Of a stretch of 64,000 nt of DNA, positions 50,210 through 58,059 are shown one piece after another. The DNA comes from Marinobacterium sp. (GTDB taxonomy: Bacteria > Pseudomonadota > Gammaproteobacteria > Pseudomonadales > Balneatricaceae): NCBI GenBank assembly GCA_018623095.1, contig JAAZVX010000001.1, positions 7,725-71,724 on the forward strand. Reading direction: 5' to 3'. The notes beneath the pieces are model-generated. The model was not told the DNA's origin. It made no database searches and saw only the letters and a program-made list of their open reading frames with translations. Numbering within the stretch: the stretch's first letter is position 1; each line of letters begins with the position of its first letter. A program made the position numbers and the translations under genes.

Positions 50210-52861
50210 ATGGGTGACCTAACCAAAGAAGTTCTTCCGGTTAATATCGAAGACGAACTGAAGCAATCCTACCTAGATTACGCTATGAGCGTGATCGTCG
50301 GCCGTGCACTCCCTGATGCTCGTGACGGCCTTAAACCGGTTCACCGTCGCGTGCTGTTTGCGATGAATGAGCTAGGCAATGATTGGAACAAACCCTACAA
50401 AAAATCTGCTCGTGTGGTCGGTGATGTAATCGGTAAATACCACCCTCACGGCGACAGCGCGGTTTACGACACGATCGTTCGTATGGCGCAAGACTTCTCT
50501 ATGCGTTACATGCTGGTGGATGGTCAGGGTAACTTTGGTTCGGTTGATGGTGACTCTGCTGCGGCAATGCGTTACACCGAGATACGAATGAAGAAGATTT
50601 CACATGAACTTCTTTCGGATCTGGATAAAGAGACCGTTGATTACGTTGACAACTACGACGGTACTGAGAAAATTCCTGCGGTTCTTCCAACGCGCGTACC
50701 CAACCTGTTAGTGAATGGCTCGGCCGGTATCGCGGTAGGTATGGCAACGAACATTCCTCCTCACAACTTGGGTGAAGTGGTTCGTGGTTGTCTAGCACTG
50801 ATTGAAAATCCAGATATCACCATTGATGAGCTGCTTGAGTTCATTCCGGGGCCAGACTTCCCAACGGGCGGGATCATCAATGGCCGTGCCGGCATTCTGC
50901 AAGCGTACCGTACAGGCCGTGGTCGTATCTATGTGCGAGCAAAACACCATGTGGAAGATCACCCTAAAAACGGTCGTCCGATGCTGGTCATCACCGAGAT
51001 CCCATACCAGCTCAACAAAGCTCGTTTGATCGAAAAGATCGCAGATCTTGTTAAAGAGAAAAAGATCGAGGGCATCAGCGAGCTGCGTGACGAGTCTGAC
51101 AAAGATGGTATGCGTATTGTCATTGAGCTGCGTCGCGGTGAAGTGCCAGATGTCATCATCAATAACCTATTTGCCCAGACATCGCTGCAGAGCGTGTTTG
51201 GTATCAATATGGTCGCCCTCGTTGATGGTCAGCCACGTCTGTTGGATCTTAAGAGCGCGCTTGAGTGTTTCGTTCGCCACCGTCGTGAAGTGGTGACACG
51301 CCGTACTGTCTACTTACTTCGTAAAGCACGTGAACGTGGCCACATCTTGGAAGGTTTGGCGATAGCACTGGCAAATATCGATCCAGTTATTGAATTGATT
51401 AAGAAATCTCCAACCCCTGCAGAGGCAAAAGAGGCACTGATCGCGACTGCTTGGGCACCGGGTCAAGTGTTGGATATGCTCGAGCGTGCAGGTGAAGATG
51501 CTTGTCGTCCTGAAGGCCTAGAAGCTCAGTATGGTCTGCGTGATAACAGCTACTACCTATCACCTGCTCAAGCGCAAGCGATTCTTGAGTTGCGCCTACA
51601 CCGTCTAACCGGTCTAGAGCACGAAAAACTGATCGAAGAGTACCGCGATCTCATTGAGCGCATCGCGGAGCTACTGGAGATTCTTGGTTCTCACGTCCGT
51701 TTGATGGAAGTGATCACTGAAGAGCTGAATCAGCTTGTAGCTGAGTATGATGATGAACGACGCACTGAGATTACAGCGTCCTCGCACGATTTGACCATCG
51801 CAGACCTGATCACTGAAGAGGAGATGGTCGTCACTATCTCTCACGGTGGTTATGCGAAGACTCAACCGCTTGAGGCCTACCAAGCTCAGCGTCGCGGCGG
51901 TAAAGGTAAGTCGGCGACAGCAATGAAAGACGAGGACTTCGTTGAGCATCTGCTAGTGACGAACAGTCACGACACGATCCTATGTTTTACTAACTTCGGT
52001 AAGGTCTACTGGTTGCGTGTGTTTGAGATTCCTCAGGCAAGCCGTACGGCTCGTGGCCGACCTATGGTTAATATTTTGCCGTTGGCTGAGGGTGAGCGCA
52101 TCAGCACGATTCTCCCCGTTAAAGAGTTTGATGAAGAGCGTTGCATCTTCATGGCGACCGCTAATGGTACGGTTAAGAAGACTCGTCTGTCGGCCTTCTC
52201 ACGCCCACGCAGCACGGGACTAATTGCTTTAGACATCGTTGAGGGGGATCGTCTAATCGGTGCATCACTTACCAGCGGTAACGACGATGTCATGCTAGTG
52301 ACCTCTGCAGGTAAGGCGATTCGATTCAACGAGACTGATGTTCGTGAGATGGGTCGTACCGCTCGCGGTGTTCGTGGTGTTAAGTTGGATGATGTCGCTA
52401 AAGTCATCTCATTGATGGTGCCTCAAGAGGGTGGTCAGGTGTTGACGGCCTCTGAGAAGGGTTATGGCAAAAAGACAGCGATCTCAGAGTTCCCAATTCG
52501 TGGTCGCGGCGGCATGGGTGTTATTGCCATGCAGTGCACTGATCGTAACGGAGCATTGGCTGGTGCTGTTCAGGTATTCGATGGCGATGACATCATGCTG
52601 ATCAGTGATCTCGGTACCATGGTTCGTACTCGTACTTCAGAGATCTCATCGCTTGGTCGAAACACCCAGGGTGTTCGCCTAATTCGTGTTGCGGATGACG
52701 AGACTCTTATCGGTCTTGCACGAATCGAAGAGCCTGAAGAGGACGAAGAGAGTGCTGAGAGTTCTGATGTGACTGAAGAGAGTAATTCAACTGGAGCTAC
52801 CGCGTCAGAAGAGAGTCCGCAAGAGGAGTCTGATGATTCCGAAGGCAGTGAAGAAGAGTAA
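50210..52861 (+). CDS. gyrA: DNA gyrase subunit A
   Basis: [10 protein letters not shown], catalytic AAMRYTE, GyrA-box QRRGGKG, acidic C-terminal tail. Confidence 0.98.
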
Positions 52862-52884
52862 TTGAGGCTCGGAACCCCTACGAC

Positions 52885-53964
52885 ATGAATCGTCTATTTA
52901 ACTTCAGCGCTGGACCTGCAGCGCTGCCAACTGAAGTACTGGAAATCGCCCAATCTGAAATGCTGGATTGGCATGCCAAAGGCCTCTCTATTATGGAGAT
53001 GAGCCATCGAAGCGCTGAGTTTGTGAGCGTGGCTGAAGGTGCAGAGCAGGATCTGCGTGAACTGATGAACATCGGTGACGACTACGCCGTTATGTTCCTT
53101 CAAGGGGGCGCAACCAGTCAGTTTGGTATGGTGCCCATGAACCTTTCACAAGGTGGCAAGGTCTCATACATTAATACGGGTGTTTGGTCTAAAAAGGCGA
53201 TCAAAGAGGCACAGCGTTTTGCCGATGTCTCTATCGCTGCATCGACAGAATCATCAAGCTTTAGTGAAGCACCTTTGCAGTCAGATCTCACTATTGAGCC
53301 GACGGCTAAGTACCTTCATTACACCACCAACGAAACCATTGGTGGGGTTCAATTTGACTACATTCCTGATGCGGGTAATGTGCCACTGGTTGCCGACATG
53401 TCGTCAGACATCTTATCGGCGCCGATCGATGTCTCTCGTTTTGGGTTGATCTATGCAGGAGCGCAGAAGAACATCGGTCCTGCCGGATTAACGGTTGTCA
53501 TCGCACGTAAAGATCTATTAGGAAACCCATTAAGCTCAGCGCCGACTATGTATGATTATGCTGTTCATGCGGCCAATGGTTCGATGCACAACACACCACC
53601 GACACTGGCTTGGTATCTATCGGGACTGGTGTTTCAGTGGATTAAGCGCCAAGGTGGATTGTCGGCAATGGCGGAATTGAATCATCGCAAAGCCTCTAAG
53701 CTCTATGCGGCTATTGATGGAAGTGACTTTTTTGCCAACCCAGTTGCTGTTCGCAACCGTTCCATTATGAATGTTCCCTTTACGTTGGCTGACTCCGCTC
53801 TGGACAAGGCATTCTTGGCTGAATCTGAAGAGGCGGGATTGTTGAATCTTAAAGGGCATCGCTCTGTCGGTGGTATGCGCGCAAGTATCTATAACGCCGT
53901 TCCTGAACAAGCGGTGGATGCTCTGATCGACTTTATGGCTGATTTCGAGAAGCGTCGAGGCTAA
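52885..53964 (+). CDS. serC: 3-phosphoserine/phosphohydroxythreonine aminotransferase
   Basis: FNFSAGPAALP, NETIGG, DMSS, GAQKNIGPAG, HRSVGGMRAS. Confidence 0.97.
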   Translation: MNRLFNFSAGPAALPTEVLEIAQSEMLDWHAKGLSIMEMSHRSAEFVSVAEGAEQDLRELMNIGDDYAVMFLQGGATSQFGMVPMNLSQGGKVSYINTGVWSKKAIKEAQRFADVSIAASTESSSFSEAPLQSDLTIEPTAKYLHYTTNETIGGVQFDYIPDAGNVPLVADMSSDILSAPIDVSRFGLIYAGAQKNIGPAGLTVVIARKDLLGNPLSSAPTMYDYAVHAANGSMHNTPPTLAWYLSGLVFQWIKRQGGLSAMAELNHRKASKLYAAIDGSDFFANPVAVRNRSIMNVPFTLADSALDKAFLAESEEAGLLNLKGHRSVGGMRASIYNAVPEQAVDALIDFMADFEKRRG

Positions 53965-53966
53965 TA

Positions 53967-54737
53967 ATGGGTCAGCAGAATCTCTATCAAGGGTTGACTC
54001 AAGATGAGGCACTGGCACAGGTGCGTGATGAGATCGATCAGATTGATCAAGAGATTCATTCCCTGTTAAATAAACGTGCTGAGTGCGCTCAGCGAGTCGC
54101 TGATATTAAGCACAGTTTTGGTGCTGACTCCCCCATTTTCTATCGACCTGAACGTGAGGCGCAGGTGCTTCGCAAAGCGATGCAGCGTAATGAGGGGCCG
54201 CTTCCTGATCAAGAAATTGCCCGTCTCTTCAGAGAGGTGATGTCAGTCTGTTTGGCGCATGAGCACAGAATGAATGTTGGTTTCATTCAAAGCCCAGGAT
54301 TGGATGCTGAGCAAGCCGCTCTTAAACAGTTTGGCCATTCAGTAGAGCCTATTGCGTTTCCTAAGGCGACTGAAGCGCTGCTAAGCCTTGCAGAAGAGGG
54401 GTTGCACTACGCGGTTATCTCCGTGAATTCACTCTCTGAGGTCTTGTCTCTTCTGATCACTCATCAGCTTAATGTGGTCGGTGAAGTGAATGTGCATGGC
54501 GATGAAGCCTATTTGGTACTGGGGCATCAAGCGGTTTCCGCTTCCGGAAATGATAAAACAGCTGTGATTATTGAAGGGTCTGAATCAACGGTAGCTGACT
54601 ATTCTCGTGCCCTTAGTGATGGAAACCTAACCTATTTAGAGCTTGATGGCGCAGTGTCGGTTGATGGCGTTCAATCTCTGGTTGGACCTGAGCTCAATTT
54701 TCACTACCTGGGACTCTTTCCCAAAGCGGTTTTTTAG
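53967..54737 (+). CDS. pheA: PheA-derived protein: intact chorismate mutase with an internally deleted, degenerate prephenate dehydratase/ACT region
   Basis: AroQ domain RDEIDQID..RA..K..YRPEREAQVL is intact. The PDT part is only about 160 aa and lacks the PxENS and TRF motifs. C-terminal LGxFPKAV is retained. Confidence 0.85.
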   Translation: MGQQNLYQGLTQDEALAQVRDEIDQIDQEIHSLLNKRAECAQRVADIKHSFGADSPIFYRPEREAQVLRKAMQRNEGPLPDQEIARLFREVMSVCLAHEHRMNVGFIQSPGLDAEQAALKQFGHSVEPIAFPKATEALLSLAEEGLHYAVISVNSLSEVLSLLITHQLNVVGEVNVHGDEAYLVLGHQAVSASGNDKTAVIIEGSESTVADYSRALSDGNLTYLELDGAVSVDGVQSLVGPELNFHYLGLFPKAVF

Positions 54738-54748
54738 GGAATTTAATT

Positions 54749-55849
54749 GTGACTATTGATCAAAAAACATTCGCAGTGTCGGGTGTTCAAAAGTTGACAC
54801 CTTACCAACCCGGTAAACCGATTGAAGAATTAGAGCGTGAACTGGGTATCAGTGAGTCGATTAAGCTTGCTAGTAATGAAAATCCCTTGGGCCCAAGCCC
54901 TATCGCCCTTAAAGCCGCTACCGACAGCTTGCAAGATGCGACACTCTATCCTGATGCGTCTGGCACCGAGCTCAAGCGTAGATTAAACACTGAATATGGT
55001 CTGGCAGAAGATCGTTTGACCTTGGGTAACGGATCAAATGACCTGTTGGAGTTGATCGCCAGAGTATTTGTGCGCCCCGAAGATGAGGTGATTTACTCGG
55101 AGTTCGCCTTCATCGTTTATCCGCTGGTGGCTCAAGCCTGTTGTGCGGTGTCGGTGGTAACTCCTGCGAAAGAGTATGGTCACGATTTGGATGCTATGGC
55201 TAATGCGATCACTGATAAGACGCGCCTTATCTTCCTAGCCAACCCCAACAACCCGACCGGAACAGTCTTCTCAGACGATCAGTTTCGCGCGTTTATGGCT
55301 CGTGTTCCTGAGCAGGTCATGGTGATTCTAGATGAGGCTTACACTGAGTATTTGACGGCTCAAAACATGCCAAACGGACTGCAGCTGGCTGATGAGTTCG
55401 ATAACTTAATCGTCACGCGAACCTTCTCTAAGGCTTGGGGCTTAGCTGGCCTTCGTTGCGGTTTCGCTTATGCTTCGGTAGCAGTAACCGATCTTCTTAA
55501 TCGTGTTCGCCAGCCCTTCAATGTCAGTTTGCCCGCTTTAGCGGCGGCACAGGCGGTACTGTCCGACTCTGAATACCTCAAGCGCAGCCAAGAGGTTAAC
55601 CAGCAGGGTCTTGAACAGATGTACGAAGGGCTTACTCAACTGGGTGTTTCGTTTGTACCAAGTCAGGGTAATTTTGTGCTGATCGACTTGGGACAGCCAG
55701 CCATGCCGATCTACCAGTCGATGCTATTGATGGGGGTTATTACTCGTCCAGTCGGTAACTACGGCCTCCCGAACCATCTAAGAGTCAGTATCGGCCTTGC
55801 TCATGAAAATGAGCGTTTCTTAAAAGCCTTAGCGGAGGCGATCGCTTAA
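54749..55849 (+). CDS. hisC: histidinol-phosphate / aromatic aminotransferase
   Basis: YQPGKPIEEL, KLASNENP, GNGSND, ANPNNPTG, DEAY, RTFSKAWGLAGLR. Confidence 0.95.
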   Translation: MTIDQKTFAVSGVQKLTPYQPGKPIEELERELGISESIKLASNENPLGPSPIALKAATDSLQDATLYPDASGTELKRRLNTEYGLAEDRLTLGNGSNDLLELIARVFVRPEDEVIYSEFAFIVYPLVAQACCAVSVVTPAKEYGHDLDAMANAITDKTRLIFLANPNNPTGTVFSDDQFRAFMARVPEQVMVILDEAYTEYLTAQNMPNGLQLADEFDNLIVTRTFSKAWGLAGLRCGFAYASVAVTDLLNRVRQPFNVSLPALAAAQAVLSDSEYLKRSQEVNQQGLEQMYEGLTQLGVSFVPSQGNFVLIDLGQPAMPIYQSMLLMGVITRPVGNYGLPNHLRVSIGLAHENERFLKALAEAIA

Positions 55850-58059
55850 TGGCGTTCAAAGCTGAACGTGTTTTAGTCGTCGGACTGGGTCTGATTGGCG
55901 GCTCTTTTGCACGTGCAGCAAAAGAGTTGGTCAGCGTTAAGCAGGTGGTTGGCTTTGATCTCAACGAGGAAGAGTGTGATCTGGCGGTTGCTCTTAACGT
56001 GGTCGATCGTATCGCAACCGATCTAGAGGTGGCGGTCAAAGAGTCTGATCTAATTCTATTAGCCGTTCCCGTCAAAGCGATAGAGAGAGTGATGCAACAG
56101 ATCGCTCCATGGCTAAAGCCTGAAGCGATACTAACCGACGTTGGCAGTACCAAACTCAATATCCTTCAGGCAGCAAAAGGTATTTGGCCTGAAGGACTAC
56201 CAGCTGGGTTTATACCTGGCCACCCAATAGCGGGTGCTGAGAAGAGCGGTGTCTCGGCATCGCAGGCGGATCTTTTTAATCATAAAAAAGTTATTTTGAC
56301 GCCCCCCGAGGGAGCCTCTGATCAGGCTACATTGACGTTGGCTCGTGTCTGGCAGTCGATTGGTGCTGAAGTGGTTCAAATGGAACCTAAGCGCCATGAT
56401 CAGGTATTAGCGGCAACCAGTCATCTACCTCATCTATTAGCCTTCTCGCTAGTCGATACGCTCGCGGCGGAGGCAGAGAGTACTGATATATTTCGCTATG
56501 CGGCGGGCGGTTTTAGAGACTTCACCCGCATTGCGGCAAGTGATCCAACCATGTGGCATGACGTCTGTTTCGCCAATCGTGAACAGCTGTTAGAGCAGAT
56601 TGATCGCTTTATGGCGGGCGTACAAGATTTAAGATCAGCCGTCGATCAGGGCGATAGCCAGAGTCTGTTGGGGATTTTTACTCGAGCTAAGGCATCTCGT
56701 GAGCATTTCTCATTGGTACTAGAGCGTGCTGGGTATGCGGAGCTCAGGGGCGACGCCATTGATACTCTTGTTTCATCTCCAACGGCTACTTTGAACGGTG
56801 AATTGCGAGTGCCCGGTGATCGCTCTATCTCGCAACGTGCCATCATGTTAGCGGCTATTGCTGAGGGTGTGTCTGAAATTGATGGCCTGATTGAGAGTGA
56901 AGATACTCTAGCAACCATTCAAATTTTTCGTGATATGGGCGTGGTAATAGAGGGACCGCACCAGGGGCGCGTTAGGGTATTTGGTGTCGGCCTAAACGGG
57001 CTGCAAGCCCCGTCTGCGCCTCTCTATTTTGGTAGTTCGATGACCTCATTGCGAATGTTGTTAGGTCTTCTGTCCGCTCAGTCTTTTGATGTGACGTTAA
57101 CCGGCAGTGAGCTGCTGTCTAAGATCACTTTACAGGAGATTATTGACCCTCTTACTCAGATGGGCGCTTCCATTGAGAGTAATAAAGGATCGCTTCCGAT
57201 CACTATCAAGGGCGGCCAAACCTTTAAGTCCATCACCTATGCGCCGAGTCATGCCAGTGCTCAGATAAAAGGCGCATTGCTGCTGGCAGCCATGACTGCG
57301 GGCATTGAGTTAGAGGTCTATGAACCCAACACTACGCGTGATCATACTGAGCGACTGTTGGCTGCCTTCGGGGTTCAGTTGGATAGAGAGGGACGTCGAC
57401 TGTTTATCGAGTCAGGTGTTTCGCTAACAGCCTGTTCAGTTCAAGTGCCCGCCGATCTGAGTTTTGCTTTTGCGTTTGCGGTAGGGGCTCTTTTGCAAAA
57501 AGAGTCCAATTTGATTATCGATAATGTCAGTGCTAATCCCACTCGTTTGCACTCGTTGCGCCTGCTTGAACGCATGGGTGCGCAGATAACGCTGAATAAT
57601 AATCGCCATGCTGGTGGTGAGCCAGTTGCTGATCTCAAGGTGAAAGCGTCGGAGCTATTGGGTATTGAGTGCCTATCATCGGAGTTGGTCTCGGTTGGAG
57701 ATGATCTTCCGCTTCTGTTGTTGGCGATGGTATCTGCTCAGAGTGAATCGACTATTTTAGGAATCGATCGAATTCCTGAGCGACAAAGGGCCCTATTTAA
57801 GACGACGGTTGATGAATTAATAAAAGCCGGTGCCGACATCTCAATGTCACAGAGTGATGTCACTATTTCGCCGGTTTCGCAGTGGCACTCGTGTGAGTTA
57901 GAGGCCGCAGAACACCCTGCACTGGCGTTAGCTCTGCTGATGTTAAGTTTACGTTTTGATCAGCCCATTCGAATTAACGGATGTCGAGCGATCATTACCG
58001 CCTTTCCTGAACTGATTGATCAGGCGCGAAGGGTCGGTATTAAATTGATTGAGGAGTAG
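55849..58059 (+). CDS. TyrA-AroA fusion: intact prephenate dehydrogenase plus degenerate EPSP synthase domain
   Basis: TyrA motifs are intact (GLGLIGGS, GHPIAGAEKSG, SHLPH, GGFRDFTRIAASDP). The AroA scaffold is recognisable but catalytic motifs are altered (PGDRS, GSSMT, SKITL, EHP). Confidence 0.88.
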   Translation: MAFKAERVLVVGLGLIGGSFARAAKELVSVKQVVGFDLNEEECDLAVALNVVDRIATDLEVAVKESDLILLAVPVKAIERVMQQIAPWLKPEAILTDVGSTKLNILQAAKGIWPEGLPAGFIPGHPIAGAEKSGVSASQADLFNHKKVILTPPEGASDQATLTLARVWQSIGAEVVQMEPKRHDQVLAATSHLPHLLAFSLVDTLAAEAESTDIFRYAAGGFRDFTRIAASDPTMWHDVCFANREQLLEQIDRFMAGVQDLRSAVDQGDSQSLLGIFTRAKASREHFSLVLERAGYAELRGDAIDTLVSSPTATLNGELRVPGDRSISQRAIMLAAIAEGVSEIDGLIESEDTLATIQIFRDMGVVIEGPHQGRVRVFGVGLNGLQAPSAPLYFGSSMTSLRMLLGLLSAQSFDVTLTGSELLSKITLQEIIDPLTQMGASIESNKGSLPITIKGGQTFKSITYAPSHASAQIKGALLLAAMTAGIELEVYEPNTTRDHTERLLAAFGVQLDREGRRLFIESGVSLTACSVQVPADLSFAFAFAVGALLQKESNLIIDNVSANPTRLHSLRLLERMGAQITLNNNRHAGGEPVADLKVKASELLGIECLSSELVSVGDDLPLLLLAMVSAQSESTILGIDRIPERQRALFKTTVDELIKAGADISMSQSDVTISPVSQWHSCELEAAEHPALALALLMLSLRFDQPIRINGCRAIITAFPELIDQARRVGIKLIEE

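Follow-up and report, generated by a model that had tools for sequence, protein, structure and literature searches.

The window analyzed here is a 64,000-nucleotide stretch from a draft Marinobacterium sp. genome assembly (1.55 Mb in 148 contigs, 90% complete). It contains a supraoperon of the order serC-pheA-hisC-tyrA, with gyrA upstream of the first three genes and a fused tyrA gene downstream of them (Table 1). The gene at the pheA position encodes 256 residues in a frame that, when the DNA is read directly, opens with ATG and closes with TAG, in agreement with a preliminary description of this locus. Its place in the supraoperon is orthologous to that of genes for bifunctional P-protein PheA, and the serC-pheA-hisC order is conserved for both short and long forms of pheA in nearly all of 60 related loci. 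The TyrA fusion would be a consumer of the prephenate made by the short protein. A promoter and terminator scan of positions 52700-56000 gave no signal above chance.

Table 1. Coordinates of the genes, domains and motifs at the short pheA locus of the window (CM, chorismate mutase; PDT, prephenate dehydratase).
Feature	Position	Strand	Description	Basis
serC	52885..53964	+	359 aa; upstream, 2-nt gap before the pheA start	ORF list
pheA, short orthologue	53967..54737	+	256 aa; CM, PDT N-lobe remnant and reduced ACT	ORF list, sequence, Pfam/NCBIfam, AF2
AroQ CM domain	54000..54263	+	P-protein subtype, residues 12-99, three helices	CM_2, TIGR01807, AF2
PDT remnant	54267..54524	+	residues 101-186, N-terminal lobe only (β-α-β-α-β-α-β-β), active-site motifs lost	PF00800, AF2, Foldseek
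ISVNS	54417..54431	+	replaces the (V)PIEN(S) substrate-site motif	sequence, alignments
Lobe-excision junction	54480..54524	+	GEVNV (54480-54494), HGD (54495-54503), EAYLVLG (54504-54524)	sequence read directly, alignments
Linker and reduced ACT	54543..54734	+	SGNDK linker and residues 193-256 (β1-β2-β3-α2-β4); helix α1 and GAL loop deleted, ESRP degenerate	no PF01842 match, AF2, alignment
SGNDK	54543..54557	+	linker motif	
LGLFPKAVF	54708..54734	+	C-terminal segment; LGxFPKAV retained	
hisC	54749..55849	+	366 aa; downstream, 11-nt gap after pheA	ORF list
tyrA fusion	55849..58059	+	736 aa, tyrA fused to an EPSP-synthase-like domain	ORF list

The N-terminal part of the short protein is a CM domain. 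Pfam CM_2 (PF01817) covers residues 19-99 (E = 9e-23; 80.7 bits against a cut-off of 27) and on the NCBIfam model TIGR01807 (CM_P2, cut-off 69.55) the protein reaches 99.4 bits, which bears out the intact AroQ domain reported initially. The helices of this domain span residues 12-50, 61-74 and 81-97 in our AF2 model. Residues R20, R37, K48, E62, R63 and E64, which we take to correspond to the catalytic residues of EcCM, are invariant among 120 homologues, full-length PheA proteins included. From these features we infer that the 256-aa protein acts as a chorismate mutase. A whole-assembly search with the AroQ and AroH profiles gave one CM_2 match and no CM_1 (AroH) match; no second CM of either class was found. 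The short PheA is therefore the only CM detected in the genome. The missing 10% of the assembly could hide a second CM or PDT, but closed relatives argue against this: in five near-complete short-form relatives, two of which are closed genomes, the short gene provides the single CM_2 match.

The remainder of the protein is far less complete. The PDT profile (PF00800) aligns residues 115-177 with profile positions 12-79 of 181, and its score of 19.9 bits lies below the cut-off of 25.2. The Pfam ACT profile (PF01842) has no match in the 256-aa protein, and NF007910 gives 25 bits against a cut-off of 577. These searches, proposed earlier as a check on the PDT and ACT regions, agree with the view of a PheA reduced to a CM and a putatively dead PDT remnant, as the profile match stops at position 79 and the motifs are lost. 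The SVNS tetrapeptide at 54420-54431 stands where ENS is expected, so that ENS reads NS, and EAY (54504-54512) occupies the TRF position on the strand that normally bears TRF. These two replacements, and the almost direct passage from GEV to AYLVLG and GNDKT, had been described from the sequence and can all be read in the DNA; the same holds for the ACT motifs, where GAL is deleted and ESRP degenerate while the terminal LGxFPKAV is kept.

Alignment with full-length orthologues locates the missing material. Between V176 and E180, ~88 PDT residues are absent (35 residues between fixed anchors that are 123 residues apart in the orthologues), a block that equals roughly Pfam positions 80-170 and residues 84-176 of a stand-alone PDT encoded in the same genome. 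A second gap of ~17-20 residues in the ACT region removes helix α1 together with GAL. The overall shortfall is ~110-117 aa relative to orthologues of 363-373 aa. A clean in-frame deletion of about 100 residues had been proposed for this protein. The in-frame loss is real, but it is divided between two separate gaps, one in the PDT and one in the ACT domain; moreover, the PDT gap is old, and the same lobe has been lost independently in several lineages. The age of the PDT gap in the window's clade is evident from its occurrence throughout the genus and from the long branches that have accumulated since.

The likeness to bifunctional P-proteins of the Pseudomonas type and of Oceanospirillales (363-373 aa) otherwise remains clear. 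The window protein shares with them the serC-pheA-hisC locus, the TIGR01807 CM subtype, the N-lobe, an SGxDK linker and a C-terminal segment that reads LGSYPKAV in the long proteins, with 45-50% identity over the common parts. What it lacks is the middle lobe of the PDT domain, TRF and ENS, and helix α1 of the ACT domain with GAL and ESRP, and neither the PDT nor the ACT model accepts it. Because three of the features that define a P-protein, namely a complete two-lobe PDT domain, TRF with ENS, and an ACT domain with GAL and ESRP, are absent, it ought not to be classed as a bifunctional PheA. The threonine of TRF is essential for PDT catalysis. The PDT active site is the cleft between the two lobes (PMC8192741). 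With one lobe lost, TRF changed to EAY and EN to NS, PDT activity in the 256-aa protein is very unlikely. Because the Phe-binding motifs and ACT helix α1 are gone, insensitivity to Phe is plausible, and the protein is probably a Phe-insensitive CM.

An AF2 model of the 256-aa protein, computed from an alignment of 120 sequences, has a pLDDT of 89.6 and a pTM of 0.85. The model contains the three-helix CM, a single β-α-β-α-β-α lobe and an ACT-like β-β-β-α-β unit without helix α1. The lobe is closed by a hairpin of two strands (residues 169-176 and 180-186) that would otherwise lead into and out of the second lobe, while the ACT remnant is composed of strands 196-203, 212-217, 221-227 and 245-252 and helix 232-239. 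In a Foldseek comparison with the PDB, the best matches were the PDTs 7alz_A, 4lub, 3mwb and 6vh5, with E values from 2e-7 to 4e-4 and 7alz_A first (2e-7). 7ALZ is the crystal structure of selenomethionine GqqA (SeGqqA), in which proteolysis during crystallization removed the middle subdomain (residues 86-170); its N-terminal and ACT domains keep their fold (rmsd 0.76 Å) and L-Phe is still bound (PMC8192741). The lobe missing from SeGqqA is the same as that missing here. As the N-lobe and ACT domain of 7ALZ are folded without it, this structure explains how a lobe-less protein can still fold. However, the SeGqqA loss was an in vitro accident in a stand-alone PDT that has no CM domain and in which the ACT domain is intact and holds Phe, whereas the loss in the window protein is genetic and ancient and was followed by further decay.

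A draft in so many contigs might produce a shortened gene through faulty assembly or gene calling, or the lobe might be encoded elsewhere as part of a split gene. The chance of either is almost nil. A 256-aa form with 81% identity to the window protein, which NCBI lists as ‘chorismate mutase [unclassified Marinobacterium]’, is present in a relative that is 99% complete in 10 contigs. A protein search also recovered a graded set of short relatives, 256-304 aa long, in assemblies from NCBI, JGI, ENA and Logan, and the PF00800 scan of the window genome found the stand-alone PDT and the remnant but no separate lobe. An assembly error, raised as a concern in the preliminary description, is thus contradicted by the same 256-aa form in the more complete relative and by sequences from five public sources.

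The stand-alone PDT detected in the PF00800 scan is a 288-aa protein encoded on a contig other than that of pheA (locus L001, G000:C41:1135-2001). It scores 381.5 bits against the NF008866 equivalog model (cut-off 359), aligns with positions 1-180 of the 181 in PF00800 (E = 4e-53) and has the NTTRF motif. Among solved structures it comes closest to 6vh5, a Brucella PDT that has Phe bound (E = 7e-75). The reduced PheA had been taken to imply either Phe auxotrophy or a replacement dehydratase, and a genome search for a second dehydratase had been suggested. The replacement exists, as the complete PDT on contig C41, but auxotrophy is not implied, with the dehydratase step predicted to be covered by this separate gene. 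The protein is of an alphaproteobacterial type, with Brucella 6vh5 and Komagataeibacter GqqA as its nearest relatives of solved structure.

Orthologues of the stand-alone PDT are found in all 151 sampled genomes of the family, with 58-98% identity. In 141 genomes sampled across the order (~53 families), the same type is confined to this family and two others. A gene that is universal in the family and found in only two others of the order suggests an old horizontal acquisition, which would have prepared the ground for the lobe losses. Because every family member also has the stand-alone enzyme, the PDT domain of the fusion protein is redundant, and this redundancy made loss of the lobe possible. 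Eight of the stand-alone PDT matches (in G136, G128, G143, G007, G125, G106, G001 and G369) have 1-2 in-frame stops within the alignment and open frames of ~290 aa; these stops are probably alignment overhang beyond the true stop codon.

Taken with the locus, the intact CM and the separate dehydratase, these data make it likely that the window protein is an in situ P-protein orthologue that has become the sole, monofunctional CM, with a PDT domain that died by lobe excision and is backed by the stand-alone PDT, and with a remnant that serves as a scaffold. The path to this state can be sketched as follows. First, one of the two lobes of the PDT domain, whose fold resembles that of periplasmic binding proteins, would have been excised whole and in frame, taking away half of the active-site cleft and thereby inactivating the dehydratase. 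The catalytic threonine of TRF and the ENS motif would then have been lost by substitution, and a second, small deletion would have removed ACT helix α1 with the Phe-binding loop. The resulting short CM would feed prephenate to TyrA and to the separate dehydratase, and the N-lobe and ACT remnant (~155 aa) would be kept as a folded, non-catalytic module that no longer senses Phe.

To place this protein among its relatives, we defined a short form as a pheA orthologue with an open frame of 250-335 aa and scored 151 genomes of the family. Short forms, 256-300 aa in length, are present in 36 of them, distributed over 5 genera. All 8 scorable genomes of the window's genus (g1) and all 14 of genus g5 have a short form, as do 11 of the 13 genomes of g10, two genomes of g4, which contains named Marinobacterium species, and one of g6 (Pontibacterium). 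The remaining 11 genera have no short form, and their PheA proteins are 360-400 aa long. Outside the family, no genuine short form was found in the 141 genomes from ~53 families of the order. Three order-level candidates proved to be ORFs cut by contig ends, and a Thiotrichales contig encodes an ordinary long PheA of 361 aa. In public records, the short forms go under the name ‘chorismate mutase’ or under ‘chorismate mutase / prephenate dehydratase’. A pathway reconstruction in which they stand for PheA would give the dehydratase step to the wrong gene.

The short forms do not share one junction. Each clade has its own, including GEVNV|HGDEAY, GEV|SELGSRY, GEVEWRSH|RSDNTARF, CIHQH|GRSG..RVEF, GEVELTPEAA..RCPRY, GEVELELDPS..ADTRY and GEVSVPVAKDQIF. 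On a tree of SerC and HisC combined, six changes between short and long forms are needed, at least three of which are forced by strongly supported branches, and an AU test rejects a single short-form clade (p = 1.9e-46). The SerC tree alone also runs against a single origin. A PheA tree computed without the deleted columns again rejects a single clade (AU p = 0.0018). A single origin, or the spread of one short allele, is thus ruled out by the flanking-gene and PheA trees together with the differing junctions. These data show that the same lobe was excised independently at least three to six times within the family, every time in genomes that already had a second PDT. In the PheA tree the short forms lie mostly on long branches, indicating that they accelerated after the lobe was lost.

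The excisions have been caught at different ages. In G097 the pheA gene (L011, contig G097:C13), aligned with the closest long forms, shows an exact in-frame gap of 84 aa at the junction GEVEWRSH|RSDNTARF, and its other PDT motifs and its ACT motifs are intact; in g5 and g10 the ACT domain and the motifs of the N-lobe are preserved in full in the alignment after loss of the lobe; and in the window's clade both the motifs and the ACT helix are gone. G097 is a Marinobacterium-group genome on a short branch, and its lobe excision is the least derived. Together, these proteins constitute a replicated natural experiment in which the same lobe was cut repeatedly from a two-lobed enzyme domain, in genomes where a stand-alone enzyme duplicated its function. 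From this series one can see which deletions an essential fusion protein will bear and how a dead domain is pared down without being discarded.

We assessed the constraint on what was kept by comparing the window with its closest relative. The dN/dS values are approximate, since dS is 0.8-1.6 and near saturation, and are 0.034 for the CM domain, 0.109 for the PDT lobe remnant and 0.253 for the ACT remnant, relative to 0.028 for serC and 0.036 for hisC. Other within-genus pairs give a similar ranking; the values for the three parts of the protein span 0.03-0.06, 0.09-0.12 and about 0.25-0.30, respectively. In one comparison of 50 codons with a copy cut by a contig end, the ACT value reached 0.73, and part of the ACT remnant may be drifting. 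Among the 120 homologues, A117, K120, F122, G123, G172, D196 and K197 are invariant or nearly so, and the C-terminal positions L248, G249, P252, A254 and V255 (LGxxPxAV) are nearly invariant. The remnant is thus under purifying selection, its constraint relaxed yet clearly present.

These values bear on whether the remnant might simply be functionless, decaying sequence that is tolerated until further deletions remove it. PDT HMM scores are graded from 82 to 35, 25 and 20 bits with the ACT match lost, the short forms mostly have long branches and the remnant has evolved at 3-8 times the rate of the CM domain, all of which decay would produce. However, dN/dS is well below 1 in both remnant parts, the predicted fold is confident, several remnant positions are invariant or nearly so across the 120 homologues, and a bare CM of ~100 aa was found in none of the 36 short-form genomes. 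Thus, functionless decay is scarcely credible. On its own, the CM domain of the E. coli P-protein retains activity, so a scaffold is not intrinsically needed by a CM. Even so, our reading of the retained module is that it is most probably a structural or oligomerization scaffold for the essential CM.

Another way to account for the retention is that the remnant is still allosteric, with the N-lobe and ACT unit binding Phe or another aromatic metabolite and regulating the CM. Such a sensor is likely in some of the relatives: in the short forms of g5, g10 and G097 the motifs of the ACT domain (PGAL/PGVL and SLTRLE[ST]R) and of the N-lobe (GPEGTFT and PIES/N) have come through the loss of the lobe fully conserved, throughout entire genera, which suggests that the g5 and g10 short proteins may still be Phe-sensing CMs, and the lobe-less SeGqqA crystal retains its L-Phe (PMC8192741). 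The window's clade is different. Helix α1 and the GAL loop are missing, ESRP is degenerate, the ACT HMM has no match and the N-lobe motifs are substituted, and the ACT remnant is the part of the protein under the weakest constraint (dN/dS 0.25-0.3). For the window protein, a regulatory remnant is therefore unlikely.

The remnant could also serve for docking: either the ACT-like sheet or the N-lobe would pair with the stand-alone PDT to re-form a non-covalent CM:PDT complex that permits channeling and control by Phe in trans. ACT domains of PDTs dimerize via sheet complementation (PMC8192741), a sheet of four strands persists in the remnant, as do the conserved segments SGxDK and LGxxPxAV, and short forms are seen only where a stand-alone PDT exists. 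Yet this co-occurrence is equally explained by plain redundancy, and the short pheA and stand-alone PDT genes are unlinked; we consider such docking highly unlikely. A broader proposal is that the remnant is an interaction module for the stand-alone PDT or another enzyme of the aromatic pathway, in effect a non-covalent P-protein, and that the repeated excision of the lobe is an adaptive rewiring of the Phe/Tyr branch point and not neutral decay. In our estimate this is distinctly unlikely.

A parallel to the loss of the dehydratase is found in the same supraoperon of another organism. In Pseudomonas syringae, TyrA carries a truncated AroF (EPSP synthase) domain, and a discarded fusion domain of this type was called unusual (Song et al. 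2005, PMC1173090). As in the short PheA proteins, one catalytic domain of an aromatic-pathway fusion has been lost, the partner is active and a second gene supplies the activity (PMC1173090). The two situations differ in the enzyme and the fold, and the P. syringae protein is a single case whereas in the window's family the same lobe was lost repeatedly. We found no description of lobe-deleted P-proteins in the literature covered, which leaves out most subscription journals. The biochemistry implied by the short forms is ordinary; their value lies in providing a natural model for the trimming and retention of redundant domains. They are also ready-made constructs with which the contributions of the PDT N-lobe and ACT domain to CM stability, oligomerization and regulation could be dissected, and the G097 protein is a good choice for such experiments.

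The proteins most similar in layout are the alphaproteobacterial PRK06034 CM proteins (NF004695-NF004698), which are ~255-285 aa long, are annotated ‘hypothetical protein’, and consist of a CM_2 domain followed by ~150 aa that Pfam does not recognize, with a stand-alone PDT alongside. The window protein, however, scores only 33-55 bits on these four models against cut-offs of 311-413 (55 against 311 at best). When a Brevundimonas member was compared by hhalign with a profile of short and long PheA proteins, the match extended from the CM into the first β-α-β-α-β of the lobe, at 97% probability with the CM included. The C-terminal parts of PRK06034 proteins alone gave an E value of 0.015, which is not significant. 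For the alphaproteobacterial protein, AF2 gave a weak model (pLDDT 65.6), whose top structural match, again 7alz_A, is marginal (E = 0.016). A full-length PheA (P0024) and a short form (P0017) align with the NF004695-NF004698 models for up to 40-55 residues beyond the CM. The PRK06034 group is at most an older parallel and is not the same family. At one Brevundimonas locus (L065:6-1196 and 1429-2196), the PDT frame stops a few residues past TRF (...NRTRFVLLSAQDG, then stop), apparently without an ACT domain, and lies ~230 nt upstream of a 255-aa CM-family gene with an unrecognized C-terminal extension.

When 1.8 billion representative proteins were searched without a profile, ~30 more clusters came up, 246-294 aa in length, whose match is unbroken through about residue 205; some of these may be fragments. 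The lobe-less architecture probably recurs beyond the family. One of these proteins, P0250 (260 aa, 32% identical), has a CM and a PDT remnant and is encoded on an AT-rich metagenomic contig (L069:3937-6637). Its operon context differs: the gene overlaps both its neighbours, which encode DAHP synthase (upstream) and prephenate dehydrogenase (tyrA, downstream), and a second DAHP synthase gene and an AbiEii gene lie nearby on the same contig.
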